In this document: piece by piece, positions 8,232 through 34,526 of the stretch
Layout of the letters: the number at the start of each line of letters is the position of its first letter
Position numbering within the stretch: the first letter of the stretch is position 1
From: a virus
Taxonomy: Duplodnaviria; Caudoviricetes
Length of the DNA: 53,878 nucleotides
Virus record (IMG/VR): IMGVR_UViG_3300049172_000115
Coordinates: 1-53,878 of that record
Strand: one strand, 5' to 3'
The notes under the pieces: model-generated
Told to the model about the DNA's origin: nothing
Seen by the model: only the letters and a program-made list of their open reading frames with translations
The model's database searches: none
Made by a program: the position numbers and the translations under genes

Positions 8232-8232
8232 G

Positions 8233-9072
8233 TCATGCTCCCGGGTTGCTGATGATCCACACATGGATGTCGGCCTGCACGCGCTCGTACACAGCGCCGC
8301 CGATGCCTCGGCCTGCCATGACGTTCACGGTGTACGTGGTCGTCGCCCCCGGTCCGATCGAGCCCGCGCCCATCTTCACGAACTGGTGGTGAATGAGGCT
8401 GGCCGTGGTCGAGCCGGTGTTGACGTCGTACGTCATCTGGTCGCCCTCGATGCCGGTCATGGCACCAGCACCGGGCGGCAGGGTGATGTCGACGTCGCCC
8501 TGCCTGGCGATGACGACGAACGCCTCGCGACACGGGTCGGGGTTCGTCACCTCCACCGAGAATGTGGTGATCGTCGTCGCAGCGACCGGCACCGCCACAG
8601 CGGGCGAGAAGGACTGGTTGAAGACCTGCCCGAAGAAGTCCATCCGCGGCAGCGGCTCGCCCCGCAGGGAGCCGTCCGGGGCGCAGAACACGCCACCGCC
8701 CTCGGCGGCGACGTCGCAGGCGTACGGCCAGGTGCCGCCCGCCACCGAGATGGGATCAGCCGCGGAGCCGTCGCCCGCCAGTCCACACCCGGTAGCCACG
8801 ACGGCCGCGCCGGGCGCCACGAACAGGCCACCCGAATCGAGGGTCAGCGTGTTCCCTGGGGTATCTGAAACGTCCGCACCGATCACGCCCGTTGCCGGGT
8901 CGTATGCCACGCCCGGCCCGGCAGACAGGCAGGCCCGTACGACTGAACAGTCAGCCGCCTCGGCGCTGATGACGATGGGGTTGGTTGTCGAGCCGGTTCC
9001 CACCAGGCTGATGCCTGGGCCGGCTGTGATGGTGCATGTGCACCGGGACCCGCTGCAGCCGCATCGGGACAT
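8233..9072 (-). CDS. minor tail/fibre protein
   Basis: ATG 9072 (MSRCGC) with GGAGG; GTGSTTNP and GLAGDGSAADPI fibre-like repeats. Confidence 0.75.
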   Translation of the reverse strand: MSRCGCSGSRCTCTITAGPGISLVGTGSTTNPIVISAEAADCSVVRACLSAGPGVAYDPATGVIGADVSDTPGNTLTLDSGGLFVAPGAAVVATGCGLAGDGSAADPISVAGGTWPYACDVAAEGGGVFCAPDGSLRGEPLPRMDFFGQVFNQSFSPAVAVPVAATTITTFSVEVTNPDPCREAFVVIARQGDVDITLPPGAGAMTGIEGDQMTYDVNTGSTTASLIHHQFVKMGAGSIGPGATTTYTVNVMAGRGIGGAVYERVQADIHVWIISNPGA

Positions 9073-9098
9073 GTAGGCCTCCTCGAATCGAGGATGAG

Positions 9099-9131
9099 GC
9101 CCGGCCCAGAACCAGCGGCATGGCGAGTCTA
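9099..9131 (-). promoter_or_regulatory. late leader motif copy 1 with -10 box TAGACT
   Basis: GCCGCTGGTTCTGGGCCGGGC (9119-9099), -10 at 9131-9126. Confidence 0.75.
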
Positions 9132-9140
9132 GAACACCTG

Positions 9141-9251
9141 TGTCCGGACACGGCGAGGCCAGTGTCCGCGCCCGTGTCCGGACACTCAGGACACCCGACC
9201 GCCGACGTGCCCGGACAGCCCCGATCGACCTGGCCGGACACTGTCCGGACA
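9141..9251. repeat. cluster of TGTCCGGACA palindromes
   Basis: Perfect copies at 9141, 9175, 9242; one-mismatch copies at 9208, 9231. Confidence 0.8.
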
Positions 9252-9253
9252 GG

Positions 9254-9976
9254 TCATCCGTACAGCTCGATGATGACCGCGCCGTGTCCGCCGGCGCTGC
9301 CGCTGAAACTGGTGTTGTTCGCGGCGGCTGATCCTCCCGCGCCGCCGCCGTAGCCACGCGACACGGTTCCCGGCCCCTGGGTGGCCCGCTGGTTGCCGCC
9401 GTGCCCCAGGTGGGATTCCCCGCCGGGTCCTGCCATGCCTGTACCGGAGCCCAGGCGGATCGCGCCGCCGCTGGAGCCACCGCCCAACGCGATCTGTCCA
9501 GTGCCGGGTGGGGGTCCGGCTACACCGGAGACGGTCAGAATGTCGGTGCCGCCGGTCATGGACGCCGATCCGCCGCCGCCGCCGTTCGCGACCACCATGC
9601 CGCCGAAGGACGAGTTGCCGCCGGCGACGCCGGCCGAGTTGGCAGTCCCGCCGTCGCCGCCCTCGCCGACGATGACCGTCTCCACCGCGCCAAGCAGGGA
9701 GACGTCGAGGAGCGATTCCGAGTAGCCGCCACCGGCACCGCCGGAGCGCCACACCGACTCGCCCGCATTAGAGTCGGCGCCCGCCGATCCGCCGCCGGCG
9801 CCCTGCACGCGGACACGGACCCGGGCCAGCCACGGGTAGTCCGCTTTCTCGAACTGGTACGTCCCCGGGGACGTGAACCGGACGGTCTCCCGCAGTCCCA
9901 TCATCCCGGGATTCAGGCAAAGTTCGCCCTCGCTGTTTACGTTGAAATACTCGCCGCAGGCGCAGACCTGAGCCAC
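9254..9976 (-). CDS. glycine-rich minor tail protein
   Basis: RFTSPGTY...VQGAGGG...GGAGGGY...GGHGAVIIE glycine-rich domain. Confidence 0.85.
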   Translation of the reverse strand: MAQVCACGEYFNVNSEGELCLNPGMMGLRETVRFTSPGTYQFEKADYPWLARVRVRVQGAGGGSAGADSNAGESVWRSGGAGGGYSESLLDVSLLGAVETVIVGEGGDGGTANSAGVAGGNSSFGGMVVANGGGGGSASMTGGTDILTVSGVAGPPPGTGQIALGGGSSGGAIRLGSGTGMAGPGGESHLGHGGNQRATQGPGTVSRGYGGGAGGSAAANNTSFSGSAGGHGAVIIELYG

Positions 9977-10002
9977 GACTCACCTCTTCCACTCGGAAGC
10001 GA

Positions 10003-10041
10003 GCCCGGCCCAAAACCAGCGGCAGCTACCGCGAGAGGTTA
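10003..10041 (-). promoter_or_regulatory. late leader motif copy 2 with -10 box TAACCT
   Basis: GCCGCTGGTTTTGGGCCGGGC (10023-10003), -10 at 10041-10036. Confidence 0.75.
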
Positions 10042-10530
10042 GCTCAGGGCCGTGGCTGTCACATGAACGGCGATCCCTTCCCCGGCCGGGACCGCCGGCA
10101 GCAGCCCGAGGCCGAGCAGCGGCCGCGTGCGCCACACCCGTACGGTCACACGGTCGACGCCTGCCTCCTCGAGCACGACCGTCAGCGTCGTGGACCCGTC
10201 CGGTGCGGCGTCCAGCGGCAGCGCTCCAACCACGGGAGCAGCGGACAGCGGCTCGGGGAAGGTCCAGGTGGCGCGGCCCGTGGCGTCGGTCGCCACGACG
10301 GCCGCCAGCGGCGACACTCCAGGCGGACCAGGAGGCCCCTGCTCGCCGGTCTCACCGCGCGGGCCCTGCACCCCGGGCCGTCCACGCTGGCCTTCCGGCC
10401 CAGGCCGGCCTTCCGGACCGGGCCGCGACTTCTGGGCCTGGGCCGCCTTCGTGCGCCGGTCCAAGTCCCGCAGCACGCTGGTCAGCGGATCGTTCGTCGA
10501 CCGCCGGCCGATGGATCCTCGAAGCGCCAT
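10039..10530 (-). CDS. collagen-like minor tail protein
   Basis: About 11 G-X-Y triplets followed by a beta domain. Confidence 0.8.
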   Translation of the reverse strand: MALRGSIGRRSTNDPLTSVLRDLDRRTKAAQAQKSRPGPEGRPGPEGQRGRPGVQGPRGETGEQGPPGPPGVSPLAAVVATDATGRATWTFPEPLSAAPVVGALPLDAAPDGSTTLTVVLEEAGVDRVTVRVWRTRPLLGLGLLPAVPAGEGIAVHVTATALS

Positions 10531-11537
10531 CACACACCCGCCGGGGTCAGCTGTACCGATACCCGCTCACCGTCGCCGGTGTCCGACACCTTCACGCCGA
10601 CGATCTTCAGGGACTGCGAGATGTTGCGGCAGGTCGCCGTCGTGGTGACGTCCACGCACCAGCCCGGCACCAGGTTCTTGACGTCGACCGCGGCGTCCGG
10701 CGAGAGCGTCGTCTGCCGGGAGTCGATGAACAGCGGCGCAGGGTTCGAGGCGCGGTGCCGGGAACGGGCGGCAGCGTCGGCCGACAGGTTGTCGAGGATG
10801 GACGTCTCCTCGACGGACCGCTCCAACAGCCCGTAGTAGGGGTCGATTCCGCCGGCCTCGCCGCGTACGTCGTCCTTACCGTGCACGACCCACCGCGTGG
10901 CCAGGGCCAGCCCGTCGTCCACGACGACCAGGCCGTCGGGGAAGTCCGCATCGGTCAGGGCGCCCACTCGCCCGCAGTGGTCTTCGGGCATCAGGAGGAT
11001 GCGGGAGCCGATCGCCGTGTAGTCGAGGCCGGTCTCCGCGAGGTCCCGCAGATGGTCGCCAGTCTGGCCGACATCCTGCTCGTACTCCCGGTCGCCCTTG
11101 ATGCGGGTGCGGGCGACGATCTCCACGGTGTGGCCGGGGTCGTCCGGGGCGAAGCCGTCTGCGATGAGCCAGGCGCCGATGTCTGCCAGGTCCCGGCCGG
11201 TGTGCCGGATCGTCTCGTGCGGCACCCGCCGGTCCAGCCACGCCAGGATGTCGAACGCGCGCACCTCGACCGTGCCGTCCGCGTTCCACTCCGGCACCAC
11301 GCACGGGCCTTCCCAGCAGGGCCGACCGTCGCGGTACAGGACAAGCTTGTGCCGCCACGGCCGCACGCGGCCCATCGCGGCACAGCAGTCCCCGTCAGGT
11401 TGTACGAGCACGCGCGCCTCGGAGATGTCGTCCAGGACGCGACTCCACTCGACCTCCAGCAGGACGTCGGCCGCGGCGACGACAGCGCCGTCCCGGTCGA
11501 TGAAGCGGGCCACATGGGTTCCGCATCCGATGGGCAT
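10530..11537 (-). CDS. minor tail protein (baseplate hub, Gp37-like)
   Basis: EWSRVLDDISEA, LYRDGRPCWEGP; second gene after tape measure. Confidence 0.8.
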   Translation of the reverse strand: MPIGCGTHVARFIDRDGAVVAAADVLLEVEWSRVLDDISEARVLVQPDGDCCAAMGRVRPWRHKLVLYRDGRPCWEGPCVVPEWNADGTVEVRAFDILAWLDRRVPHETIRHTGRDLADIGAWLIADGFAPDDPGHTVEIVARTRIKGDREYEQDVGQTGDHLRDLAETGLDYTAIGSRILLMPEDHCGRVGALTDADFPDGLVVVDDGLALATRWVVHGKDDVRGEAGGIDPYYGLLERSVEETSILDNLSADAAARSRHRASNPAPLFIDSRQTTLSPDAAVDVKNLVPGWCVDVTTTATCRNISQSLKIVGVKVSDTGDGERVSVQLTPAGV

Positions 11538-11545
11538 GACGCTCC

Positions 11546-12979
11546 TCAGTATTCGCGGCCGGACAGGGCGATCGTCACCGTGGCGTCGTCGGCCGGGGTG
11601 TAGAGCGCATCAGCGGACACCTCGACGCAGTAGCGGTCGCAGTCGAGCAGCGGGAAGGCGAGCGGCCCGCCGTCGCGTCCGTACGCGTCCGGGGAGCTCT
11701 CACACACGCCGCCGCACTCCACGCTCGCCCGGCCGACCTGCCCGTCGAGGGTGAGCGCGCCCCCGGCTGGCACGTAGGCGACGTTGAACACCGCGAGCGG
11801 CGAGCAGCGTTCCATCTCCGCCACCTCCTCGCACGTCATACCCTCGTGCTCCGAAAGCCGCTCGTACACCGTGACGGTCACCCGGCGCAGGTCCTTGCTG
11901 CCGGCGCGCACGGTGATGACCGGGGCGGCGCCGAACCAGCGGGGCCACGAGGTGAGGTCGAGCTCGTACCACTCGGAGTTGACGGCCAGCGCGGTGCAGA
12001 AGCAGGTCTGCGGAGGCGGCGGTGCCGGCGGGCTGGGGGTGTTGCAGCCCGGGTCGTTGCACATCGAGTCCAGGTCCGGGCATGCGGCAAGCCGACACGC
12101 CTTGTCGCACGGCAGATCCAGCTCGTCGCGGTCCGGCCAGACCACATCCCCGCACGCCGCGTCGGTCAGCTCCACCGACACCGCCCCCGGCGGGCAGCTG
12201 TCGCCGAGGACCATGCACACCGGGTCGTACGGATCGAGCGGGTTGCGGTGCACGCACCAGACGATGCACTCGCTGCCGTCGTCCGTCGGCACCGCCGCCT
12301 CGAGCACGGGAACCGGGTCGGTCCACATCCACGGGGTGGCCGCAGTGAGCACGAACTCCACGGTGAGGATGTCGGCCCCGGTGGAACAGCCGCCCCTGCC
12401 TGTGCAGCCGGTCCCGGTCCGGCCGATGACCCGCGGCCCCTCAGCCAGGGCGACACGGCGCAGCGTGCGCCGGTGGTCTGCGGCGAAAACCTCCGGTTCC
12501 TCGAACTCTGCGGGGCAGCAGTTGTAGAGCGTGAGACAGTCGCCGCCGCAGCCGTCCCCGCAGTCGAGGGCCTGCGCGAGCCACCGCAGCCCGTAGTTGA
12601 CGGCGCAGCAGGTGACGCCGAGGAGGACGGCGGTGACGGTGATGGTCCGCGGCTGGACCCGGGCCGGGCCGAGCGCAGCACTGCCGGCGGCCGAGCGGGT
12701 CACCGTCCGGGTCACCGGGTGGTCGTCCAGGCCGTCGACGGAGAGCACCATCAGGCCGGCGAAATCACCGGACTCCGGCACGTCCGGGTCGTACCACGGG
12801 GCGTCGTCCTCCGCCGGGTTGGTGTACGGCTCGTCGCCCACGAGGATCGCGTCGAACGTCTCGCAGCCGCAGGCGGTGACGGAGTCCAGCGGACTGCCGA
12901 CCGACTCCAGGTAGGCCGCCAGCCGGGCGGAGTTCGCGATCTCGGTGTCCCCCATGCGGAGGTACCACTCCAGCGCCAT
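11546..12979 (-). CDS. distal tail protein-like minor tail protein, Cys-rich
   Basis: Directly follows tape measure; VEFVLTAATPW motif. Confidence 0.8.
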   Translation of the reverse strand: MALEWYLRMGDTEIANSARLAAYLESVGSPLDSVTACGCETFDAILVGDEPYTNPAEDDAPWYDPDVPESGDFAGLMVLSVDGLDDHPVTRTVTRSAAGSAALGPARVQPRTITVTAVLLGVTCCAVNYGLRWLAQALDCGDGCGGDCLTLYNCCPAEFEEPEVFAADHRRTLRRVALAEGPRVIGRTGTGCTGRGGCSTGADILTVEFVLTAATPWMWTDPVPVLEAAVPTDDGSECIVWCVHRNPLDPYDPVCMVLGDSCPPGAVSVELTDAACGDVVWPDRDELDLPCDKACRLAACPDLDSMCNDPGCNTPSPPAPPPPQTCFCTALAVNSEWYELDLTSWPRWFGAAPVITVRAGSKDLRRVTVTVYERLSEHEGMTCEEVAEMERCSPLAVFNVAYVPAGGALTLDGQVGRASVECGGVCESSPDAYGRDGGPLAFPLLDCDRYCVEVSADALYTPADDATVTIALSGREY

Positions 12980-15900
12980 CAGATCACCGCCGCCAGCGCG
13001 AGGCGGTTGACCACCCTGTGAGCTGTCATCTGTCCGTCCCCGGCCTCGTTGATGGTGAAGTGGTTCGTGATGGACGCCCCGCCCCGGCCGCCGGTGGCTC
13101 CGAGGATGTCCAACAGCCCGGACTGCTCCGCGAGCTGGCGGGCCCTGGCCGGGCGCGTGAGCGGGATGATGACCTCCGGGCCGGCCTCGCCGACGAGGGC
13201 AGGCGTCGGGCCGTAGACGATGCCGCCGTCCGCGAACGGCAGCAGGTTCGCGACCGACGACGGCAACCCGCTTTTGATCTTGTTTACGATTTGGCTGCCA
13301 ATGTTGCCCAGCGCTCCGGTGATCCGGCCGGGCAGGCTGGAGAACAGCCCGGCGATGGAGTCGATGAGGCCGCCGATCGCCCGCTGTGCGGCGCCCCAGG
13401 CGCCGCTGAAGACGTCGGCGATCCGGCTGCCGAGTCCGGAGAGGGCCGACCCGATCCGTCCCGGCAGCCCGGTGAAGAAGTTCACGACCCGCGACCCAAG
13501 GCTGGTTGCCGTGGACATGGCCTGACTGGCCATGTTCTGGAAGATGCCGAGGATCCGGCCGGGCAGGGTGGACACCGCCTGACTGGCACGGCCCGGGAGC
13601 TGGGCGAAGAAGGTCGTCGCGCTGGTCAGGAAGTTCTGGATCGCCGTCTGCACCGTCGTGAACGCCGTGTTGAACAACCCGAGCAGGGTGGTGCCCAGGC
13701 CGGCCAACGCGTTCCAGATCCTGCCCGGCAGCTCCGTGAAGACGAACACGATGCCAGCGATCGCCGTGCCGATCGCGATCACCAGGTTGGCGATCGCGCT
13801 GGTGAACAGCTCGATCAACAACCCTGGCAGGGAGGACAGGAAACCCATGATCATGCCTGGCAGGTTGGTGAAAAAGTCGAGCACGCCCTGAAAACCGGTC
13901 GTGATCGCAGTGCCCACCGTGGTGAACGCAGTGCTGAAAAAGGTGCTGATCGTCGAGCCGAACGTCGACAGGCCGGAGATGATCATTCCCGGCAGGCCGA
14001 CCACGAAATCGACCGCCGACGTCAGCCCGCCGATCAGGCCGGTGAGGACGGAGACGACGCCCTGGATCACCGGCACCACCACGTTGATCGCCACCCAGCC
14101 GAGGAACGCGGCAGCAATCTGCAACACCGGCCCGACGATCTGGATCAGCATCGACACGAGCGGCGTCAGTGACACGACCAGGTCGGCAATCGCCGGCACC
14201 AGTGGCAGGACCGCGTTCACGATCTCCAGGAAGGCGTCGATCAGCGGCGGAAGGATCGGCAGCAGCGCGGCCGCCAGCTCGGCGACGAGCGGGGCGAATG
14301 CCGCCGCCAGCTGAACAACAGCCCCGACGAGGGTCGTCATGACCGGCGCAAGTCCGGTGATGAGCTGGGCGAGTGCTTGACCCACGCCGGCCACGAGCGG
14401 GGAGATCGCGGCCACCAGCGTGGTGAAGGCAGAGGCCAGCGGCGGCAAGATCGGCATCAGCGCGTCGACCAGCGCGGTGATGATCGGGGCAAACGCGGCG
14501 GCCAGCGTCTCAAGAACCGGAGCCAGGGCTGTCGCCAGCACGGCCACGAGCTGGCCGGCCAGGGGCAGGAGCGGCGCCAGCGCGGTGAGGACGGCACCGA
14601 TCGACGCGCCGAGCGGACCCAGCGACGGGCCGATCGCGGCGAACGCATCGGAGAGGGCCTGGGCGACGACCTGGAGGCTCGGCACGATGGCGGCGATCGC
14701 CGGACCGATCGCGTTGATCACCCCGACGATCGCGGGTCCAAGCGTGGTGAAAATCGGAGCCAAGGCTGGCGCGATGGCACCGAGTTGGGTGATGAGGGCC
14801 GTCAGAATGGGGCCGATCTGCGCCGCGACGGTGGCCAGCGTTCGGAACACGTTGGCGATCGCCTCTTGGCCGGCCGCCGAGTTGACGAACTCGGCCATCG
14901 AGCTGGTGATCGCCTGGAGACTGCCGAGAAAGCCTCCGCCGGCCGTCTGGGCTGCCCGGAAGACCCCCGACAGGGCCGAGCCGACGTTGCCGATGATGTC
15001 GCCGAGCTGCGCGAACACGGTCAGCGCCTGGTCGACCCAGCGGACAGCATCGCCGCCGCGCGCGGCCTCCTGCAGAAAAGTCCCGAACCGCTGCCCGAGG
15101 GCGGAGATCCCGGAGGCGAGCTCGCCGCCGAACCGGTCGGAGATGGCGGCCGCCATCTGGAGGATGCCCGCGGTGAGTTTGTTCGTCGTCTGGCCAAGGG
15201 CGTCGACCGAGAGCTCCGTGGCGTCGAGGATCGACGTGATGTTGCTGACGCCCTGGGCACCCTGGACGTAGCCGAGGACACCCCGCGCCGCGTTGCCCCA
15301 GCCGGTGGCGATCGCGGTCAGACCCGACTGCAGCGGCCCGCTCAGCGCCTGCGCGGTGGCAGTGATCTGCCCTGCGATCTGGCCGAAGAACGCGTCCTGC
15401 ACTGATTCCCGCAAACCTTCGAACGCAGGCTTGAGGGCACGCACTTCACGGGCTGCGGCCTGAGCTGCCGGCGACAGGCCCTCGAGGGAGGCCTCGAACT
15501 CCTCGGCCGACCCCGTCAGTCCGGCGCTGAACGCTTCCGAGACGCCCATCAGCACCAGCCGTAGAGCGCCGAGCGCGGCCTGCCAGCCGAGGATGAGGGC
15601 AGGGAACGCGGCGACGATGCCCGCTGCTGGGGCGAGGGCGGCGACGAACCCGCCGATCGCCGTCGCTGCGCCGGCCGCAGCAATACCGACCGCGCCGATG
15701 ACGAGGAGCTGCTGCAGCGCGCCCGCAACCCGGCTCGCGATGCCGCCTAGACCGGACAGGGCACGCCCGAGGCGGTCGCTGTCGGTGTTGACGTTGACCG
15801 TGACATCCGGCGCGTTGTGCGCCCGGATGCGGGCGTCGAAGTCGTCCAGGTCGGGGACGACGCGGATGCTGACTTCCTGGCCTGCCAGCGCGGCACGCAG

Positions 15901-16125
15901 CCGGTCCATGAACCCGGTCAGGTCCGGCTCAACCAGCGCCTGGATCGTGACGGTCCGGCTCAGGCCGCGGTCGATGTTCCGCTGGATCGTCGCGCCCAGA
16001 TTGCGGGTGCTGCGGTTCAAGGCCCGCTGGATCCGGATGCCGAGGTCTCGCGCATCAGCAACGACGTCGCTGTCGTCGAGGACGATCCTGATCCGGCCGG
16101 ACCCGTAATCCTCGTCATCGGCCAT
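12979..16125 (-). CDS. tape measure protein
   Basis: 1048 aa Ala/Leu/Gly-rich helical repeats; C-terminal FADGGIV...GEAGPEVIIPL. Confidence 0.95.
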   Translation of the reverse strand: MADDEDYGSGRIRIVLDDSDVVADARDLGIRIQRALNRSTRNLGATIQRNIDRGLSRTVTIQALVEPDLTGFMDRLRAALAGQEVSIRVVPDLDDFDARIRAHNAPDVTVNVNTDSDRLGRALSGLGGIASRVAGALQQLLVIGAVGIAAAGAATAIGGFVAALAPAAGIVAAFPALILGWQAALGALRLVLMGVSEAFSAGLTGSAEEFEASLEGLSPAAQAAAREVRALKPAFEGLRESVQDAFFGQIAGQITATAQALSGPLQSGLTAIATGWGNAARGVLGYVQGAQGVSNITSILDATELSVDALGQTTNKLTAGILQMAAAISDRFGGELASGISALGQRFGTFLQEAARGGDAVRWVDQALTVFAQLGDIIGNVGSALSGVFRAAQTAGGGFLGSLQAITSSMAEFVNSAAGQEAIANVFRTLATVAAQIGPILTALITQLGAIAPALAPIFTTLGPAIVGVINAIGPAIAAIVPSLQVVAQALSDAFAAIGPSLGPLGASIGAVLTALAPLLPLAGQLVAVLATALAPVLETLAAAFAPIITALVDALMPILPPLASAFTTLVAAISPLVAGVGQALAQLITGLAPVMTTLVGAVVQLAAAFAPLVAELAAALLPILPPLIDAFLEIVNAVLPLVPAIADLVVSLTPLVSMLIQIVGPVLQIAAAFLGWVAINVVVPVIQGVVSVLTGLIGGLTSAVDFVVGLPGMIISGLSTFGSTISTFFSTAFTTVGTAITTGFQGVLDFFTNLPGMIMGFLSSLPGLLIELFTSAIANLVIAIGTAIAGIVFVFTELPGRIWNALAGLGTTLLGLFNTAFTTVQTAIQNFLTSATTFFAQLPGRASQAVSTLPGRILGIFQNMASQAMSTATSLGSRVVNFFTGLPGRIGSALSGLGSRIADVFSGAWGAAQRAIGGLIDSIAGLFSSLPGRITGALGNIGSQIVNKIKSGLPSSVANLLPFADGGIVYGPTPALVGEAGPEVIIPLTRPARARQLAEQSGLLDILGATGGRGGASITNHFTINEAGDGQMTAHRVVNRLALAAVI

Positions 16126-16153
16126 CGGGCAACCTCACGAGTGGTGTGTGGTT

Positions 16154-16193
16154 GCCCGGCCCAAAACCAGCGGCGTAGTGCGTAGCCAGGTTA
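16154..16193 (-). promoter_or_regulatory. late leader motif copy 3 with -10 box TAACCT
   Basis: GCCGCTGGTTTTGGGCCGGGC (16174-16154), -10 at 16193-16188. Confidence 0.75.
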
Positions 16194-16520
16194 TCCGGTG
16201 GCGCCACCGGTGAGCTTGGCGTCCTCTGCGGTGAGCTGCGACGTCAACGCCTGCGCCTGGGCGCGGGACATGCCCATAGCGGCGCGCGCCTGCCGGCGTA
16301 CCTCCGGTGCCGCGCCCTTCGGCGGCGCGTACAGCCGGGCCCGGTTCCGCTGCCGCTCCCCGTCGTCGGCCGCGGCCTGGTCCATCGCGGCCTCAGCCGC
16401 GTTGAGCATCGTCCTCAGCGTCCACGAGTGGATGTCGACGCCTTGGAGCGCGAGACTGCCCTCCCACGACTCCCAGGAGGCGGCGATGCTGGCACAGAGC
16501 CGGTGGACGACGTAGGAGGG
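16191..16520 (-). CDS. tail assembly chaperone, frameshifted C-terminal extension (gpT-like)
   Basis: Open -1 frame ...PSYVVHRLCASIAASW...TG* overlapping the chaperone 3' end, just before tape measure. Confidence 0.7.
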   Translation of the reverse strand, partial: PSYVVHRLCASIAASWESWEGSLALQGVDIHSWTLRTMLNAAEAAMDQAAADDGERQRNRARLYAPPKGAAPEVRRQARAAMGMSRAQAQALTSQLTAEDAKLTGGATG

Positions 16521-16858
16521 CGCTGGCCGCCACCGCCGTACAGCTCGACAGCCCACTCCATCAGCTGGATGAGGACACGGTCCGGCAGCCGTGCCGCCTC
16601 GAAGTCTGGCACCGACTCGGGCAGCATCAGGCCGGCGAGGAACTCCCGCAGGATGCGGACGGCGCCGCGCAGCGTGTCGACGTCCAGGCCGGTCATGTTG
16701 TTCAGGTCGACGCCGAGGTCCTTGTAGGCGTCCTGCATGGCGCCGTACTTTTCGAGGAATTCGTCCCCCATGACCTCGGGGAGGAACTGGAGCTCGAGGT
16801 CGTCGCCGATGACAGCGACGTGCGGCTCCTTGTTGATGGTGAATTGCTTCCGCGCCAC
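16415..16858 (-). CDS. tail assembly chaperone (gpG-like)
   Basis: GTG 16858; ends WAVELYGGGGQRPPT followed by a low-complexity tail. Confidence 0.8.
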   Translation of the reverse strand: MARKQFTINKEPHVAVIGDDLELQFLPEVMGDEFLEKYGAMQDAYKDLGVDLNNMTGLDVDTLRGAVRILREFLAGLMLPESVPDFEAARLPDRVLIQLMEWAVELYGGGGQRPPTSSTGSVPASPPPGSRGRAVSRSKASTSTRGR

Positions 16859-16885
16859 GGGGGGCTCCCGTCCGTACTGCGTTGC

Positions 16886-16921
16886 GCCCGGCCCACAACC
16901 AGCGGCGTACGGGGAAGGGTA
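16886..16921 (-). promoter_or_regulatory. late leader motif copy 4 with -10 box TACCCT
   Basis: GCCGCTGGTTGTGGGCCGGGC (16906-16886), -10 at 16921-16916. Confidence 0.7.
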
Positions 16922-16992
16922 GAGCACCAGCGGAACTGCTGATCTACCTCAAGTCGGCGTCAGTCACCCCGTGGAGGGGGAACACTGGGCGC

Positions 16993-17190
16993 ATGAGCAA
17001 CATCGACAGGCGAAACCGCCGCCCCGCCCCCACCAGCGGCTCCCCCGCCTCTCAGCCGCCCGCCAGTCCGCGCCCGAGCATCAATCCGTTCGCGTACGGC
17101 GACCCAACGTGGGGCGGCACGTCCCAAGCGCCGTCCTCGTCGAGCTGCGACTCCGCCTCGGGAGGGTCATCTTCTTCCGGTTGTGAGTGA
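16993..17190 (+). CDS. 65-aa Ser/Gly/Pro-rich protein, opposite strand to the tail operon
   Basis: MSNIDRR...SSSSCDSASGGSSSSGCE; AACACT 6 nt before ATG (leaderless-type); fills an intergenic gap and has hairpins downstream. Confidence 0.55.
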   Translation: MSNIDRRNRRPAPTSGSPASQPPASPRPSINPFAYGDPTWGGTSQAPSSSSCDSASGGSSSSGCE

Positions 17191-17249
17191 ACGCCGGCCC
17201 GGAACCGCTACGGTCGGTTCCGGGTGCGCCAGCTCCACCAGCTGGTTCA

Positions 17250-17282
17250 ACCGAGCCCCCGCCGAATCGGCGGGGGCTCGGT
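17250..17282. terminator. bidirectional terminator hairpin
   Basis: accgagcccccgccga-a-tcggcgggggctcggt inverted repeat. Confidence 0.75.
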
Positions 17283-17286
17283 CAAT

Positions 17287-19767: not shown

Positions 19768-19769
19768 GG

Positions 19770-20474
19770 TCAGGACGCCAGGCAGAGGTCGCCGGCGACC
19801 GGGGTGTAGGTGCAGGTCGCCTCGGGCGGCGGCACGTTGGTGATGAACGTGCGCCGGTGGCAGGTCGGGCCGAGCGGGGTGAGCAGCGGCCCGGGGGTGC
19901 CGGCCGCGTCGAGGGGCATGACGTCGTACGGGCCGACTCCCCACCCGCCGCCGGCACGGGTCGCGCCGGTCATGGTGAGCGATGCCTGCTCGCTACCGAC
20001 CTCCAGGTCGCCGAGCATGCCGTTCGTGACCCACGGCATCAGGAAGTAGATCCAGCTTCCTTCACCCGCGCCGGTGGCCTCACAGACGTCCTCGCCCAGG
20101 ACCTCGGCCCACAGCTCCAGCGCGAAGCCGCTGTTGCACTGGATCGAGCAGTCGTCGTAGCCGATCGGCTGGCCGTCCCAGCCGTAGACGACCGGGTTAC
20201 CGGTGGTGATCTCGATGAACTCGGGGCTGACGGAGAAGAAGTTGAGCTCGGTGTCGAAACCACGGAATGAGGGGCAACCGCGCTTGAAGCCGCAAATCCT
20301 GCCGTTCGCGGCCTTGTACTCGACGTCCGTGCCCTCCTCGATGTTCGGGTTCATGCCGAGGGTGGCGAAGCAGTCGAAGACAAAGCCGTTGTCCTCACCG
20401 CAGACGGGCCGGCCACAGCCGTCGACCCGGGTCACTCGGATTACGTCGGCGTTGGCGATCAGTGGACAGGGCAC
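19770..20474 (-). CDS. major tail protein
   Basis: IRVTRVDGCG, KAANGRIC, FALELW, YFLMPW motifs. Confidence 0.85.
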   Translation of the reverse strand: MPCPLIANADVIRVTRVDGCGRPVCGEDNGFVFDCFATLGMNPNIEEGTDVEYKAANGRICGFKRGCPSFRGFDTELNFFSVSPEFIEITTGNPVVYGWDGQPIGYDDCSIQCNSGFALELWAEVLGEDVCEATGAGEGSWIYFLMPWVTNGMLGDLEVGSEQASLTMTGATRAGGGWGVGPYDVMPLDAAGTPGPLLTPLGPTCHRRTFITNVPPPEATCTYTPVAGDLCLAS

Positions 20475-20505
20475 GAGGGGCCTCCAACGAAAACTGTGTT
20501 GGTCG

Positions 20506-20539
20506 GCCCGGCCCAGAACCAGCGGCTTCCATGAGTCTA
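20506..20539 (-). promoter_or_regulatory. late leader motif copy 5 with -10 box TAGACT
   Basis: GCCGCTGGTTCTGGGCCGGGC (20526-20506), -10 at 20539-20534. Confidence 0.75.
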
Positions 20540-20594
20540 GCCGCGACCGTGCTTGCGCATCCGGTCGCTCGAGGGGGCGTTGCTCAAGGGTGGG

Positions 20595-30200: not shown

Positions 30201-31395
30201 CGTGCACGTCCCCGCTGGCCGGGTCGATGTCGCAGAGCAGGCCGGCCAGCTCGAAGGCCCGGGAGTCGCCGCACGCTGCGGCGCCGGCCGGGGGCGCGCC
30301 CGTGCTGTACGTGCCGGTGATGAGGTTGATCCACCCGTCCTGGGTGACGACGCCCGCGCAGTCCCGGGTGACCACCACGGCGATCGGGGTGCCGTCCGCC
30401 AGGCACAGGCCGAGCGTCGCGGCCGGGGTGGTCGGGGCCTCGCAGTCCGGGGCGGCCGGGCACACACCCACGGTGCCGGTGACGACGTACGGGGTGGCGC
30501 CGTCCAGGGCGACGTCCTCGAACGAGGCGGCGTCCCCGAGCCAGGAGTAGCGGCGCAGGAACGGGCCGACCTCGTCGCACAGGGTCAGGACCTCGGAGGC
30601 CGGCGAGGCGTACTCGCAGTCCACCGGCGCCACGGGGGTGTACGGGGCGGACGGGTCGTCCTGGTAGGTCAGGACCAGCTCGGCCGTACCGTCGCCCTGG
30701 ACGCACCACAGCTCCGAGTACGTGGCGTCTGCCTGGCCGTCGCCGTCGGTGTCGTCGCACCTCGTCCGGCAGACGGTGTCCACGCACGTCGCGGAGGCCG
30801 CGGCCTGGTCACAGGTGCCGACGGTGCCGGTGACGACGTGCGGGGTGATGCCGTCGAGGGCGAAGTCTTCGTAGGTGGCGGTGCCCTGGAGCCAGGTATA
30901 CCGGCGGAGGAACGGCCCTTCCTCGTCGCATAGCGTCACCGTCTCCGACTCGGGGCAGCCGTACGTGCAGTCCACCGGCGCGACCGGGGTGTACGGGACG
31001 GACGGGTCGTCCTGGTAGGTCAGGACCAGGTCCGCGGTGCCGTCCGCACGGATGCACCACAGCTCGCTGTATGTGGTGTCCGCTGCGCCGTCGCCGTCTG
31101 TGTCATCGCAGAGCTGCCGACAGACCGTGTCCAGACACCCCGCGTCGCAGGGGCCAGCGTCGGCCGGGAGCACTCCAGGGGTGAACACCCCGGTCGCGGC
31201 GTCGATCCAGCCGACCGCGACAGGGTCCGCGGCCGCCTCGCCGCACTCCACGCAGCCGGACCGGACGACGAGGAGGACGGTTGTGCCGTCGTCGCGGCAC
31301 AGCGGCGTAGAGGCGATCGACGGGGAGCAGCACGTCACCACCTCGACCGGGGTAGTTCCTCCGCCCGGTCCGCAGGGAACTGGCTCGACCGGCAT
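27286..31395 (-). CDS. giant Cys-rich modular repeat protein 2 (1369 aa), putative head fibre/decoration
   Basis: Same repeat unit, three CDDxDGDGxAD motifs, three inserted domains. Confidence 0.85.
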   Translation of the reverse strand: MPVEPVPCGPGGGTTPVEVVTCCSPSIASTPLCRDDGTTVLLVVRSGCVECGEAAADPVAVGWIDAATGVFTPGVLPADAGPCDAGCLDTVCRQLCDDTDGDGAADTTYSELWCIRADGTADLVLTYQDDPSVPYTPVAPVDCTYGCPESETVTLCDEEGPFLRRYTWLQGTATYEDFALDGITPHVVTGTVGTCDQAAASATCVDTVCRTRCDDTDGDGQADATYSELWCVQGDGTAELVLTYQDDPSAPYTPVAPVDCEYASPASEVLTLCDEVGPFLRRYSWLGDAASFEDVALDGATPYVVTGTVGVCPAAPDCEAPTTPAATLGLCLADGTPIAVVVTRDCAGVVTQDGWINLITGTYSTGAPPAGAAACGDSRAFELAGLLCDIDPASGDVHGLVLVEYAYNPDGSLASVRLVDPATGATYTLQGELRRCPGGTETQPEQDLTVLCDTAADGTTTAFLRDYRRDPASGQINGHTDYALDGSAYAPTGEVGQCGRLAPEPCRTSSALLVCDLPTAGEPTPTVSDTDPTPYQGTGLGAEPLPGGAANLWAGGAISIPADSAAGPGHINQHLRSIAANVQAPRPGCDTGTATVTASIRVQRTGPSSALGGNGLWALWAGSTRVAIVTTPNNTPVGYTGTLTVSGQVPAADLAAGNVRLAAMLETWHTAAHVGGWIVDQAATSVIYDQTGCETQFLRNVTVDCETGEVTAVTDTTLDGAPYTPAGEVGQCTASGGACCPEEPCRNTSSLLLCDLPTDGTPAPTVTDTPGAPYYPYTTGVAIPGAQTLWDGGTLTLPDAAGPQPGTTGTVRTAAAIIQTPRPVCDTGTAHVTVQVDVTQLGPDNGCRATGFLGLYNGTGEANRIALALAPPDTPAGWSGTLTAEADVPADDLAAGNIAVLVAFDAYDDSGTTCPPPRRTGWRLTEFAATVAYDQTGCETQFLRNVTVDCETGEVTAVTDTTLDGDPYTVTGEAGQCIPASGGGTTVQPCGDTEVVQLCDLTYDPQAPIPTPAGDFTLTGNVVAANGGTTLWFAQANQEANGVAELTVGGLLPAVLYEFRFASAWIGAGGADPVNNAAIYRLDILDGATVLATRTRNVSNGSNVFPGGVLSEDLPPLAFIAPATGAVTIRFTDLTTGGPVNDRDLFLMPFEVRTAVLTVTRTPFLRRFTFDCDGGLTSSQDLALDGATPYTVAGEVGQCAGDGDGSSVTVPPCGANTVMEACRCDDADGDGIADTDYVELLGVDCEGALTSLGTYMADLSAPYVPVAPIDCAETGEGAEPAIGVQARRVELAAGETWDAEGWPTLQSVTAIAHGGTGTVTTLDGPSTLHTGEAATWSVARDTDALLTGPLTITADTGTVTLSYTIGVTL

Positions 31396-31398
31396 CCG

Positions 31399-32708: not shown

Positions 32709-32735
32709 CGCTCGCCTCCGTTCTCAAACTGGGGT

Positions 32736-32770
32736 GTGCCGGGCCTGTGTTCAGGTCACAGGCCCGGCAC
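32736..32770 (-). terminator. hairpin after major capsid gene
   Basis: gtgccgggcctgtg-N7-cacaggcccggcac. Confidence 0.7.
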
Positions 32771-32787
32771 ACGGCTGGGGGCGAGGG

Positions 32788-34425
32788 TCAGGCGATCGGG
32801 CAGGTGAGCGCGGTCTGGCCGCCGGTGGTACCCGAGGGGCAGACCGGGATCGTGATGGCGCGGGTGTCGACGGACCGGTCGACCAGGGCGACGCATTCCT
32901 CGGAGAACAACGCCGTGTAATCGTTGGTGGAGAACTTCGTGCTGTCGTGGATGACGCCGAGGTTGACCTCTTCGCCACGGCCGATCTGGAGCGAGCCGGC
33001 CGGGTACATCAGCACCTGCATCGCGGTGGGCCAGTCGAGCGCCGGCGTCGGACCGCCGATGTCGGTCGGGACGGCGGGGGCGAGGCCCCGGGCCCACTGG
33101 ACACGGACCCCCAGGCGGCTGAACGCGTCCTGAATGCAGCCCGGGTCGATCTCGCAGACGTCCTTGCCGTTCTGGCGGGCGATGTCGGCGAGGAACATGT
33201 TCCTCGTCCACCAGGGGAAGACCACTTCGAGCGCCGTCGTCTCACACAGGGAGTGGCGCTCGATCATGTCGGCGGCCTGCAGGGCGATCGCCGCGTAGAC
33301 GGCGGACACCGCACCGAACGTCGCCGGCAGAACGACCGGCGTCGCCGTGGCGAGCGCCTGCTCGTACAGGACGGAGCGGATCCGGATCTCGTGCGCCACC
33401 ATGGCGTTGCGCAGGTACCAGGCGACCAGCTCGGGGAAGTGGCGCTGCGTCAGGATGCCCGCTTCCAGACAGACTCCGACCGCGTCACAGCGGACCTCGA
33501 CGGGGTCGGGGCACGGGATGCGGAAGCAGGGCTTGGTAGCACCCGAGATGTCGTCGGCCTCGGTGTGCACCCACGTCATGGCGGACACGTCGAGCGACAG
33601 CGGCTTGTAGTAGCGCAGGCCGCCTCGAGCGAGCTGGATCTCCGGGGCGTCCCACAGCATGTCGGGGCACGCCGTGTCGGTCAGCTCGTAGATCGTCTCC
33701 GACGGTGCGCACCAGCCGCCGGACGCCACGAGGTCCTGCTGCGGCAGGCGCCGCTGGCTGGAGGCGTGGAGCGACACCGTGGTGCCCTCCGGCGCCGACG
33801 AGGAGTCGGTGACGATCAGGTCGTCCGCGTACGGGTGCCGGTAGGAGATGACCTGGCCCACGCCGCCGCCCGCGGTCTTCAGGGCGTTGGCGCGGGAGAT
33901 GATGCCGGCGGTGATGCCGTCGAAGGCCAGCGGCTGGCCCGGCGTGTAGCCGGGGACGTCGACCGCCGCGGTGATGCTCGTGCCCGGGGCGGGCGGCTCG
34001 GGCAGGACGCGCGGCTGCTTGCGGCGGACGCCGGCCAGGTTGAGCGCGGGGCGCTGGACGACGGCCGCGGTGACCTGCGGGGCGGGCTCCGGCTCGGGCT
34101 CCTCGACTGCTGCGGCGACGGTCTCGTCGCCTTCGCCGCTGTCCTCGCCCTCGGCGGCTTCGGCTGCGGCGTCCGGGCCGCGCACCTGGGCGGCGAGGGA
34201 GTCGATCTCGGCGGCGGCCTGCTGGGCGGCCTCGTGGCGCGCTGCCTGCTCGGTGCGGATCGAGTCGACGCACGTGGCGAGCGAACGCAGGGACTCGAGG
34301 TCCTTCGTCGTGACGGTGGTGGACTGCGACCTGGTGTCGAATGCCTCAACGGCGCCTGCGAGCGCCTCGTTCAGCTCGTCGTCGCTGAGGGCGGAGACGT
34401 CCTCGGGGATCTCAAAATCGGCCAT
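32788..34425 (-). CDS. major capsid protein (hexamer-type) with N-terminal scaffold-like region
   Basis: LVASGGWCAPSETIYEL, RGGLRY, KPCFRIPCP, HDST...NDYTALFSEE. Confidence 0.9.
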   Translation of the reverse strand: MADFEIPEDVSALSDDELNEALAGAVEAFDTRSQSTTVTTKDLESLRSLATCVDSIRTEQAARHEAAQQAAAEIDSLAAQVRGPDAAAEAAEGEDSGEGDETVAAAVEEPEPEPAPQVTAAVVQRPALNLAGVRRKQPRVLPEPPAPGTSITAAVDVPGYTPGQPLAFDGITAGIISRANALKTAGGGVGQVISYRHPYADDLIVTDSSSAPEGTTVSLHASSQRRLPQQDLVASGGWCAPSETIYELTDTACPDMLWDAPEIQLARGGLRYYKPLSLDVSAMTWVHTEADDISGATKPCFRIPCPDPVEVRCDAVGVCLEAGILTQRHFPELVAWYLRNAMVAHEIRIRSVLYEQALATATPVVLPATFGAVSAVYAAIALQAADMIERHSLCETTALEVVFPWWTRNMFLADIARQNGKDVCEIDPGCIQDAFSRLGVRVQWARGLAPAVPTDIGGPTPALDWPTAMQVLMYPAGSLQIGRGEEVNLGVIHDSTKFSTNDYTALFSEECVALVDRSVDTRAITIPVCPSGTTGGQTALTCPIA

Positions 34426-34457
34426 GGCCGGGCACTCTCCGTAGAGCGGTAGCGAGT

Positions 34458-34526
34458 GCCCGGCCCAAAACCAGCAGCGTCAGCGTGAGCGGTCGGGTCG
34501 TGTCACGACCGCTCGGAGCCAGCATA
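34458..34526 (-). promoter_or_regulatory. late leader motif copy 6 with -10 box TATGCT
   Basis: GCTGCTGGTTTTGGGCCGGGC (34478-34458); -10 at 34526-34521 separated by an extra hairpin. Confidence 0.7.

Follow-up and report, generated by a model that had tools for sequence, protein, structure and literature searches.

Why should one short sequence recur before the virion genes of a phage, and what could it do there? In the stretch of 53,878 nt analysed here (IMGVR_UViG_3300049172_000115, hereafter the window), the 21-nt consensus GCYGCTGGTTBTGGGCCGGGC has exactly six matches, all on the minus strand (Table 1), compared to 0.04 expected from shuffles, and none of 100 shuffles reached six. The six-copy repeat described in a first-pass annotation of this DNA is therefore well founded. 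A covariance model built on the motif (R1) scored these copies at 32.3–34 bits, with the next best match in the window at 21.6 bits. From copy 1 to copy 6 the motif ends 26, 26, 28, 27, 31 and 32 nt before a start codon, which is the range that had been claimed.

The suggestion that the motif marks a set of virion genes was likewise borne out, with the tape measure, chaperone, major tail and capsid identities upheld and one of the two supposed minor tail genes coding for a fibre-like protein. The homologue of the chaperone in phage TurkishDelight, gp26, carries the annotation tail assembly chaperone. For the remaining gene, ORF 8233–9072, family searches were without any match, and the earlier assignment to the minor tail genes stands by position only. 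N-termini resembling that of its product follow the motif at other loci.

Table 1. Coordinates of the leader elements and of the genes behind them in the window. P1, stem-loop formed by the 21-nt motif; P2, hairpin of the Shine-Dalgarno (SD) region; energies in kcal/mol.
Feature	Position	Strand	Remarks
P1 copy 1, leader of ORF 8233–9072	9099..9119	-	32.9 bits
P1 copy 2, leader of ORF 9254–9976	10003..10023	-	34 bits
P1 copy 3, tape measure leader	16154..16174	-	34 bits
P1 copy 4, tail assembly chaperone leader	16886..16906	-	33.3 bits
P1 copy 5, major tail leader	20506..20526	-	32.9 bits
P1 copy 6, major capsid leader	34458..34478	-	32.3 bits
-10 hexamer TAGACT, 6 nt before P1 copy 1	9126..9131	-	
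-10 hexamer TAACCT, 12 nt before P1 copy 2	10036..10041	-	
-10 hexamer TAACCT, 13 nt before P1 copy 3	16188..16193	-	
-10 hexamer TACCCT, 9 nt before P1 copy 4	16916..16921	-	
-10 hexamer TAGACT, 7 nt before P1 copy 5	20534..20539	-	
-10 hexamer TATGCT, 42 nt before P1 copy 6	34521..34526	-	
Extra 5'-proximal hairpin, capsid leader, between -10 hexamer and P1	34487..34514	-	-17.2; z -3.3
P2 copy 1, SD GGAGG in 3' arm, base on P1 18–21	9075..9102	-	-15.9 with 5' strand blocked
P2 copy 2, SD in 3' arm	9977..10005	-	-13.7
P2 copy 3, on P1 positions 17–21	16126..16158	-	-21.3; whole leader z -2.81
P2 copy 4 region, weak or atypical, two small hairpins	16857..16891	-	leader z +0.47
P2 copy 5, SD GGAGG in 3' arm, base on P1 18–21	20478..20509	-	-16.8
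P2 copy 6, 12-bp base on P1 14–21	34426..34465	-	-29.9; z -3.47
279-aa protein, Cys-rich N-terminus, minor tail candidate by position	8233..9072	-	controlled gene
Glycine-rich tail fibre-like protein	9254..9976	-	phrog_863 'tail fiber assembly' 5e-41; Gly_rich_2
Tape measure protein	12979..16125	-	phrog_305, 3e-102
Tail assembly chaperone homologue	16415..16858	-	phrog_12617; homologue TurkishDelight gp26
Major tail protein	19770..20474	-	phrog_792, 1e-90
Major capsid (major head) protein	32788..34425	-	phrog_777, 4e-172

The first reading had recognised the repeat and its role as a leader; what it missed is that these 21 nt form a conserved stem-loop of their own (P1). Pairs form at 1:21, 2:20, 3:19, 5:18, 7:17, 8:16 and 9:15, G4 and U6 are bulged, and the loop of 5 nt is variable, being U-rich in the main variant. 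Covariation across relatives, which that reading had named as a check, was examined in 58 distinct 21-mers; these represent 143 instances, taken from upstream of homologues of the major tail and capsid proteins that had been collected by protein similarity alone. In this set 99.0% of the P1 cells pair, compared to 89.9% in shuffles, and 39 two-sided compensatory changes are found, compared to 9.2, neither value being matched by any of 500 shuffles; the sequences are related, hence these tests overstate independence. Controls in slid registers gave 17–52% pairing, and in a continuous register free of bulges the covariation was absent. Pair 1:21 occurs as GC (36), AU (11) and GU (9), pair 2:20 as CG (44), UA (9), AU (2) and UG (2), pair 3:19 as CG (38), UA (9), UG (9) and AU (1), and pair 5:18 as CG (51), AU (4), UA (2) and GC (1), while pair 9:15 is U·G in 35 of the 58 variants. 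The many G·U pairs fit the sense RNA strand only, so it can be deduced that P1 acts as sense-strand RNA; with a -10 hexamer just upstream, this backs the earlier claim that the motif is transcribed. The invariant features are the bulged G4 and U6, G7G8:C16C17 and G14G15, and the loop and lower pairs vary. P1 therefore shows what is expected of a structured cis-regulatory leader RNA in general, namely a conserved structure, compensatory changes and a fixed position at the gene start. By itself it is weak, with a mean energy of -4.5 kcal/mol and a mean probability of 0.11 in the predicted ensemble of 282 leaders.

P1 is found upstream of 72 of 72 unique major-tail and 55 of 56 unique capsid homologues, down to ~50% protein identity, and 20 of the 72 tail leaders carry tandem copies. 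For example, R1 finds 10 copies in seven virion-gene leaders of TurkishDelight, the remaining 43.6 kb scoring at most 17.5 bits. In five host genomes, every match of at least 30 bits falls within a single prophage-sized cluster per genome. P1 also occurs in TP1604 and in phages of cluster BG, one of them predicted to be virulent. The element is confined to virion-gene leaders, and its carriers are a large group of phages and prophages of Streptomyces and Streptosporangiales. The phage of the window is of Streptomyces type. Searching the whole window against Rfam 15 at E up to 1 returned only a tRNA and a weak His-leader match, both elsewhere, and with E relaxed to 10 no match in three leader loci overlapped a motif; nor did we find a paper on the 21-nt element in the literature.

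A TANNNT hexamer had been reported 6–13 nt upstream of five copies and, with an extra hairpin, 42 nt upstream of the capsid copy, and these positions were confirmed (Table 1). Across the relatives, 217 of 281 leaders have a TANNNT ending 5–12 nt ahead of G1, compared to 10 of 281 in a control window, and the gap from P1 to the hexamer is 6–10 nt in 198 of 226. Base frequencies are 68% for G-14, 59% for C-13 and 87% for C-8; conservation is limited to the -10 hexamer and G-14, and a -35-like hexamer is present in 7 of the 217 leaders. In positions 8000–21500 of the window there are no sigma-70-type promoters with both -35 and -10 hexamers. Because no RNA run contains the sequence, the 5' end of the mRNA was inferred from the position of the -10 hexamer, and a -10-only promoter at this distance would place P1 at the mRNA 5' end. 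In the 56 leaders where no -10 hexamer is near, the hexamer is adjoined by a second P1 in 18 cases and by another strong hairpin in 16.

The 3' end of the motif had also been said to pair with the SD/start-proximal region, and such a hairpin (P2) is indeed predicted in five of the six copies, copy 4 being different. When single sequences were folded against dinucleotide shuffles, the tape measure and capsid leaders did better than the shuffles, and the other four gave z-scores of -0.87, -0.07, +0.47 and -0.47. In 261 leaders, the continuation of the P2 3' arm is pairable with motif positions 20, 19 and 18 in 93%, 84% and 75% of cases, compared to a background of 40–47%, in keeping with the pairing of the motif's 3' end noted earlier. 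At position 21, a change of C to U is matched by G to A in the partner (104 C:G, 15 C:A, 3 U:G, 25 U:A; Fisher 8e-15). Variants with A19 are compensated in P1 and mostly not in P2 (3 of 15 pairable), and variants with A20 are pairable in P2 in 6 of 12. P2 thus extends into motif positions 18–21, so that the two helices compete. The structure of P1, its position and its overlap with P2 are established by this comparison of sequences.

A cruder test, of motif positions 14–21 against the 15 nt before the start, gave no excess complementarity (-8.29 vs -7.92 kcal/mol; better in 131 of 282 leaders), and shuffling the spacer shifted the mean MFE only from -22.1 to -20.2. Compared to 25 other leaders of TP1604 and TurkishDelight, motif leaders have a lower MFE (-20.3 vs -14.4) and a more highly paired SD (0.68 vs 0.54, p 0.0017). 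The mean energy is -18.1 kcal/mol for the long P2 and -13.7 with P1 enforced. In many leaders the P2 core still lies over the SD with P1 enforced, so the formation of P1 alone does not free the SD. The spacing from P1 to the start codon is 18–36 nt, mostly 22–32, in 282 leaders.

Since P1 shares bases with the hairpin that covers the RBS, the leader probably controls the amount of virion protein. The reading we prefer, and to which we would give an even chance, is a two-state 5' leader that sets the translation, and probably also the stability, of the capsid and tail mRNAs. From the features above we infer a transcription start and a switch with a putative direction and a possible factor, as follows. 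Each copy would be part of a modular late-gene expression cassette, in which a -10-only promoter (G-14, C-13, TAnnCT, no -35) would start the transcript at or within ~4 nt of motif position 1. The 21 nt would then fold as P1, with the gene-specific P2 directly 3' and the SD in its 3' arm; the base of P2 reaches back into P1 positions 18–21, and the start codon mostly lies 22–32 nt past P1. P1 and the base of P2 are mutually exclusive, and the leader would therefore have two states. In one, the long P2 would lock the SD and leave the 5' strand single-stranded; in the other, P1 would form, the 5' end would be sequestered and P2 would be shorter by about four G-C pairs. The balance between the states could set translation initiation, and probably 5'-end-dependent decay, jointly for the mRNAs of the capsid, major tail, chaperone, tape measure and fibre. 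A putative factor common to all these phages may read the invariant features of P1; the host could supply it, as a component conserved in lineages from Streptomyces to Streptosporangiales, or the virion module could encode it.

A tentative extension, which we rate as possible but probably not correct, is that P1 is the recognition hairpin of a novel regulator that flips the leader and thereby switches on capsid and tail synthesis as one RNA regulon. Such a regulator might be a small virion-module product or a host protein that Streptomycetales and Streptosporangiales have in common. If so, 6–10 mRNAs per phage would be under a single post-transcriptional regulator. Phage late genes would then be under a new class of control, exerted at translation and stability instead of by a late activator of transcription, and RNA control of late genes would be widespread in actinophages and their prophages.

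The first-pass annotation had likened the leaders to Mu com-mom, in which a dedicated small zinc-finger protein acts on one target mRNA with a late-gene leader. The architecture agrees: in both, a late-gene leader has a recognition hairpin and, immediately 3' of it, an inhibitory hairpin with the SD and start region. However, 6–10 leaders per genome share one hairpin here, P1 shares a strand with the inhibitory stem, and a Com-like activator was not identified. The proteins common to the window, TP1604 and TurkishDelight all belong to the virion module, with no non-virion protein among them. The single small ORF of the window with a CxxC...CxxC pattern (1971–2261, 96 aa) has no tblastn match in TP1604 or TurkishDelight, both of which carry P1. 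The analogy to Com therefore covers architecture only.

Could P1 instead be a mere 5'-terminal stabiliser against 5'-end-dependent RNases, with P2 tuning the RBS and neither a switch nor a dedicated factor? Hairpins at the 5' end stabilise bacterial mRNAs, and those of the ompA-leader type, which likewise lie only a few nt from the 5' terminus, do not depend on a specific sequence. P1 begins 0–4 nt past the inferred start in most leaders, another hairpin or P1 takes the 5' position in 34 of the 56 leaders where the -10 is farther off, and no trans factor was found among three complete genomes. A generic hairpin, however, need not keep the bulged G4 and U6 and G7G8:C16C17 in 72/72 and 55/56 regions. 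Unlike the ompA hairpin, P1 keeps its invariant bulges and pairs even when not 5'-terminal, staying beside P2 where another hairpin caps the 5' end; it is also thermodynamically weak, and its overlap with P2 is conserved. We consider a plain stabiliser unlikely. An antitermination or anti-pausing signal, formed by P1 with or without P2 and acting on RNA polymerase in cis or via a bound protein, would explain a hairpin immediately past each promoter, the tandem copies in tail leaders, and the conservation of the sequence from host to host, since the polymerase as its target would itself be conserved. The lambda nut/boxB-N and HK022 put RNAs are also promoter-proximal hairpins, present in more than one copy per genome and governing downstream phage genes, but they affect transcription elongation and have no link to an RBS. 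The tightly kept distance to the start codon and the gene-specific, SD-bearing P2 point instead to the ribosome and translation, each gene group has its own promoter, terminator-like sites in 8000–21500 are at chance (3 vs 2.7 expected), and no Rfam family matches, which leaves this reading improbable.

An endonuclease site for RNase III, RNase E/J or a phage nuclease, yielding stable translatable units, is more doubtful still: adjacent helices could stack as a longer duplex, the main-variant loop is U-rich, and both the window and TurkishDelight have a PIN-domain ORF, but TP1604 carries P1 without a match to this ORF, and the -10 hexamer directly upstream in most leaders already yields a primary 5' end. 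Two readings of the motif as DNA can be regarded as very improbable. One is an operator at +1 to +21, for a roadblock or 'stoperator' repressor, or a late-activator site. In cluster A mycobacteriophages such as L5, the repressor recognises its stoperators as double-stranded DNA, and the motif resembles stoperators in being asymmetric, multi-copy, co-oriented with transcription and placed in short intergenic spaces of the virion operon; many carriers, moreover, are prophages that need silent late promoters. Identity with an L5-type stoperator was rejected, as Watson-Crick covariation at four pairs, sense-strand G·U pairs and two one-sided bulges indicate RNA and are unlike a double-stranded site. 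The element is also kept in cluster BG, with its one phage predicted to be virulent among others, and is nearly identical across very different phages, while immunity sites would usually diverge. The other, and the least probable of all, is a promoter of a phage-specific or modified polymerase with its start site downstream of the motif. Promoters of single-subunit polymerases are indeed conserved stretches of ~20 bp at a short fixed distance before genes, but the covariation of positions 1–5 with 18–21 requires both P1 strands in the RNA, TANNNT is strongly enriched upstream, the window revealed no gene for a polymerase or sigma factor, and no non-virion protein is shared with TP1604 or TurkishDelight.

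Two further elements resemble the two-state leader in part. The start-associated sequences (SAS) of cluster K phages have a 13-nt consensus that includes the SD, adjoins the start and lies mostly outside the structural module, the SAS/ESAS consensus being GGGATAGGAGCCC (PMC12699233). Like P1 they are actinophage-specific, conserved, multi-copy and placed before start codons, sometimes with inverted repeats; P1 differs as a 21-nt covarying hairpin, 22–32 nt upstream and before virion genes only. With up to 2 mismatches, GGGATAGGAGCCC has 0 matches in the window, and identity with SAS/ESAS was rejected. In hairpins of the BIV TAR type, two single-base bulges flank one pair and an arginine-rich peptide is bound. 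P1 has no sequence or evolutionary relation to BIV TAR, but its bulges G4 and U6 likewise flank the single pair 5:18, which offers a structural lead only.

All six copies of the 21-nt element in the window match the motif pattern exactly where the first-pass annotation had placed them, all on the minus strand, where shuffled sequence would be expected to give 0.04 matches. The distances of 26–32 nt from motif to start codon, the -10-like hexamers (6–13 nt upstream in five copies, 42 nt in the capsid copy) and the identities of the downstream genes are likewise as it had described them. In addition, a covariance model of P1, the stem-loop formed by the element, scores the six copies at 32.3–34 bits and everything else in the window at 21.6 bits or less, with no P1 at the terminase, portal or protease genes. 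The hairpins that the annotation had drawn between the 3' end of the motif and the Shine-Dalgarno (SD) region stood in part: they are present in the predicted folds of five copies, but single-sequence folding beats dinucleotide shuffles only for the tape measure (z -2.81) and capsid (z -3.47) leaders.

Positions of the P1 copies and of other features in the window
Feature	Position	Strand	Description
P1 copy 1	9099	-	minor tail gene
P1 copy 2	10003	-	minor tail gene
P1 copy 3	16154	-	tape measure gene
P1 copy 4	16886	-	chaperone gene
P1 copy 5	20506	-	major tail gene
P1 copy 6	34458	-	major capsid gene
CxxC...CxxC ORF	1971-2261	-	96 aa
HTH regulator	3617-4975		452 aa, after the lysis genes
Palindrome GTGTCCGGACAC	9140-9151, 9174-9185		12 bp, 34 bp apart, just upstream of the copy 1 -10 hexamer
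phrog_15153 frame	16191-16898	-	overlaps the end of the chaperone ORF
Palindrome CCGGTGGCGCCACCGG	16195-16210		perfect, 16 bp, at the end of the preceding ORF, abuts the tape measure -10 hexamer upstream
Chaperone ORF	16415-16858		
Region of repetitive ORFs and transposase-like fragments	20900-31395		between the capsid-associated and major tail genes
Transposase-like fragments	21459-21884, 21965-22456		
Very large repetitive ORFs	23198-27508, 27286-31395		both phrog_18824, no assigned function
MxCxC protein	34569-34742	-	57 aa, begins MACAC, just upstream of the capsid leader
Tandem direct repeat	41366-41807		~215 nt, 83% identity, intergenic beside the PIN ORF
PIN_12-domain ORF	41944-43191	+	415 aa, between the terminase and portal genes, opposite strand
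ParB-like (phrog_7405) and second protein	45397-47690	-	upstream of the small terminase
tRNA gene	47844-47914	-	Rfam tRNA, 54.8 bits, upstream of the terminase region

The first hint of a hairpin within the motif was a compensatory change at 3:19 in an RNAalifold analysis of 19 tail leaders. The P1 alignment comprises 58 distinct 21-mers (143 instances) from two protein-defined sets, collected with a search expression that left positions 1-3, 5, 9-13 and 18-21 free. Positions 4, 6-8 and 14-17 were fixed by that expression and are invariant by construction, so their support is instead the near-universal presence of the element upstream of tail and capsid relatives. P1 pairs 1:21, 2:20, 3:19, 5:18, 7:17, 8:16 and 9:15, with G4 and U6 bulged. 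Paired cells make up 99.0% in this register, as opposed to 89.9% in shuffles and 17–52% in slid controls, and both two-sided changes (39 vs 9.2) and further pair types (12 vs 8.3) exceed the shuffles; none of 500 shuffles reached any of the three values, and while these tests ignore relatedness, the variants are nonetheless found with various loops and in various genes. At four of the pairs the compensatory changes take several forms: 1:21, for instance, changes from G:C to A:U, 2:20 from C:G to U:A or A:U, and 5:18 from C:G to A:U, U:A or G:C. An earlier alignment, made from 38 versions of the tail set alone, agreed with this. Since G·U pairs are frequent (the opposite strand would have A·C) and the bulges are one-sided, the pattern means that the constraint on P1 acts at the sense RNA and not at double-stranded DNA. 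A continuous 5-bp register without bulges, proposed by RNAalifold for the capsid leaders, was rejected because it shows zero covariation.

To avoid selection by the motif, relatives were fetched by protein similarity alone, with the major tail protein (80 loci) and the capsid protein (64 loci) as queries. A P1-type hairpin lies upstream in all 72 unique regions of the tail set and in 55 of 56 of the capsid set, even where protein identity is as low as about 50%; the single miss carries a P1 copy with an inserted base. Tandem P1 pairs, spaced 4–47 nt apart, occur in 20 of the 72 tail regions. Pattern scans found at least 125 loci in viral contigs and at least 183 when one genome per prokaryote species was searched. 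Among the viral-contig matches listed, 106 were non-redundant, 72 with the leader layout and 34 inside ORFs and chance-like. The genome matches listed come from Streptomyces, Kitasatospora, Embleya, Nonomuraea, Planomonospora, Planotetraspora and Sphaerisporangium, usually with several on a contig within a few kb, and have TANNNT 4–14 nt upstream in 153 of the 182 unique ones; apart from a handful of chance-like matches, the ORFs that follow them encode capsid, tail, chaperone, tape measure and Cys-rich tail-fibre-like proteins. In each of five host genomes, all matches of at least 30 bits fall in one prophage cluster and on one strand (150 candidates scored per genome).

By DNA, distant relatives of the window (about 70% identity) are Streptomyces phage TurkishDelight and the Woodruffvirus phages TP1604, YDN12 and Geonosis, the latter three belonging to cluster BG (cluster BG announcement). 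In TP1604 the capsid and major tail genes are preceded by a P1 variant that differs in its loop and its last base, and the tape measure gene is preceded by a degenerate copy. The covariance model finds 10 copies in seven leaders of TurkishDelight (capsid, major tail (two), chaperone, tape measure (two), minor tail gene, gp32 and tailspike region) and no score above 17.5 bits in the remaining 43.6 kb. Tandem copies within one leader can differ in the loop and in compensatory variants (loci L029, L127 and many of L147-L226), and contig 2582581314_000001 mixes canonical and variant P1, L175 being unlike L053, L055 and L056. The identities of the lower-stem pairs therefore seem free to vary within one genome.

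P1 is followed by a second, gene-specific stem, P2, which carries the SD in its 3' arm and whose base reaches positions 18-21 of P1; in tape measure leaders, P1 positions 15-21 take part in its 11-bp helix. The arm that follows P1 pairs better with the SD arm of its own leader than with those of other leaders (-11.0 vs -8.7 kcal/mol; own better in 185/282), and the P2 region is more stable than spacer shuffles (mean z -1.83; z < -1 in 73/120). Compared with 25 other TP1604 and TurkishDelight leaders, the motif leaders are also more folded, although their G+C content is higher as well (0.68 vs 0.62). When the 3' arm of P2 is continued by stacking from the first base pair beyond P1, it can pair with P1 positions 20, 19 and 18 in 93%, 84% and 75% of 261 leaders, against a background of 40–47%. 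A change of position 21 from C to U goes with a change of its P2 partner from G to A (Fisher 8e-15, uncorrected for relatedness); inside P1, position 21 covaries with position 1 too. The same four bases are therefore claimed both by P1 and by the base of P2. Compensation in P2 is incomplete, with 3 of 15 A19 variants and 6 of 12 A20 variants pairable. A cruder test for duplexes between motif positions 14-21 and the sequence before the start gave no excess over permuted motifs, and the stacking-continuation test was used in its place. RNAalifold did not recover P2 from the 19 tail leaders because MAFFT misaligns its arms, so the support for P2 comes from the alignment-free tests and the tape measure family. 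By nearest-neighbour energies, the long P2 averages -18.1 kcal/mol against -13.7 with P1 formed, and is the lower of the two in 231 of 282 leaders; P1 alone contributes -4.5 kcal/mol. Among the window copies the gap between the two states runs from about 1 kcal/mol (copy 2) to 17 kcal/mol (capsid), with copy 4 the exception in favouring P1.

A TANNNT hexamer ends 5–12 nt before P1 position 1 in 217 of 281 leaders; a control window placed 30 nt farther upstream has one in 10 of 281. TAGACT, TACCCT and TATGCT are the commonest hexamers and 9 nt the commonest gap, and hexamer-aligned leaders favour G at -14 (68%), C at -13 (59%) and C at -8 (87%). The promoters lack a -35 element, with one present in just 7 of the 217, and the 8000-21500 interval of the window has no two-hexamer site. 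At actinobacterial promoters, transcription starts 6–8 nt past the -10 hexamer; on that basis, the RNA is predicted to start at most about 4 nt ahead of P1 position 1, or at that position itself. The base preceding position 1 is G in none of 73 instances. The 56 leaders with no near hexamer divide into 18 with another P1 copy beside the -10 hexamer, 16 with a different strong hairpin there (including the capsid leader of the window), 11 with a hexamer 14–24 nt away and 11 with none within 54 nt. A hairpin at the 5' end of the mRNA thus seems to be wanted, and P1 stays beside the RBS even where another structure caps that end. A search of sequencing runs found no RNA run with the sequence; the matches were two DNA-type soil metagenome runs. 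Two palindromes lie next to these promoters (see table). GTGTCCGGACAC, for which the window holds four matches at up to one mismatch (0.6 expected), could act as the operator through which a DNA-binding protein regulates the copy 1 promoter; for CCGGTGGCGCCACCGG (0.02 expected), either a terminator-like hairpin or an operator role is possible.

The evidence best supports a two-state leader, which would set the access of ribosomes to the SD. It would probably set mRNA decay as well, because one state exposes a 5' tail of 13–17 nt and the other buries the 5' end. Formation of P1 would weaken P2, which speaks for P1 as the "on" state. The opposite direction could equally apply, the single-stranded 5' tail beside a closed RBS hairpin acting as a ribosome standby site, which is an established model. 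Rival explanations that also place the function in the RNA are that P1 is a stabiliser only, that it is an antitermination RNA, or that P1 and P2 together form a processing site. The motif could instead be a DNA operator or a promoter element, but these two DNA readings are the weakest because P1 covaries.

Several proteins were considered as candidate partners of the leader. At tblastn E 1e-4, the proteins common to the window, TP1604 and TurkishDelight are virion-module proteins only. The HTH regulator was set aside because it is unrelated to the HTH protein that TurkishDelight has in the matching position. The PIN_12-domain ORF is 43% identical to TurkishDelight gp5, has no match in TP1604 and may be a moron or defence gene. 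The small MxCxC protein also lies just upstream of the capsid leader in TP1604 and TurkishDelight, is present at seven further loci, and occurs once, inside the prophage, in each of the four host genomes tested. It has no Pfam match, and the window copy has no PHROG match; that of TP1604 matches phrog_17988, which is without assigned function. Its Atlas leads are all <0.9 and its structure model (mean pLDDT 69.9) has no Foldseek match at E ≤0.001, so that Pfam, PHROG, Atlas, the model and Foldseek give no link to RNA. Several of the putatively P1-controlled tail proteins have Cys-rich N-termini (CxC or CGC). The CxxC...CxxC ORF has a zinc-ribbon-like pattern that no other small ORF in the window shows, and neither TP1604 nor TurkishDelight shares this ORF. 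The complementarity of the P1 5' strand to 16S rRNA is presumably limited to 8 nt. We conclude that any P1 factor comes either from the host, as a component that these actinomycetes share, or from the module, or else that there is no dedicated factor, in which case the leader may work through, for example, folding order during transcription.

The first-pass annotation had compared the leader with that of Mu com-mom; the likeness is one of layout. Identity with SAS/ESAS or with stoperators was ruled out, and no Rfam 15 family matches the element. It is not described in the literature that we covered, incompletely, on actinophage promoters, motifs, RNA elements and the named phages: the cluster BG announcement does not mention it, the words "promoter" and "motif" are absent from the Geonosis paper, the passages covered of the Samy prophage paper, the Minerva preprint and the S. 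coelicolor dRNA-seq paper hold nothing relevant, and searches with the motif strings returned only unrelated human or fungal papers. We would file the element as a structured translational leader, unusual in that identical 5' hairpins at -10-only promoters make up a multi-gene set. Little is known of how Streptomyces phages control their late genes, and a short covarying RNA before the capsid and tail genes of all relatives examined but one, and in many prophages of antibiotic-producing actinomycetes, offers a concrete, testable handle on it. If the two-state leader is true, it would explain how -10-only promoters can sit in a prophage without virion protein production, and how the amounts of capsid, tail tube, chaperone, tape measure and fibre are set jointly. 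The cassette of a short promoter and a 50-nt leader is compact and portable and could serve as an expression or regulation part in Streptomyces engineering, and the P1 hairpin is a sensitive annotation marker for this type of prophage virion module.

The window is an entire IMG/VR virus record of 53,878 b, linear, estimated to be 81% complete and about 70% G+C. Its virion module lies on the minus strand and extends from the terminase, at about 45.4 kb, down to the lysis genes, at about 6.7 kb. The two phrog_18824 ORFs and the transposase-like fragments between the capsid-associated and major tail genes are absent from TP1604; Xkcd426 carries more than 6 kb of inserted DNA at a similar place (cluster BG paper). 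Beyond the terminase, the second protein encoded beside the ParB-like one has DAM-like-phage1 and GNAT-phage-like Pfam domains, and TurkishDelight has ParB-like and methyltransferase genes at the corresponding genome end. The overlap of the phrog_15153 frame with the chaperone ORF fits the usual programmed frameshift of tail assembly chaperones.
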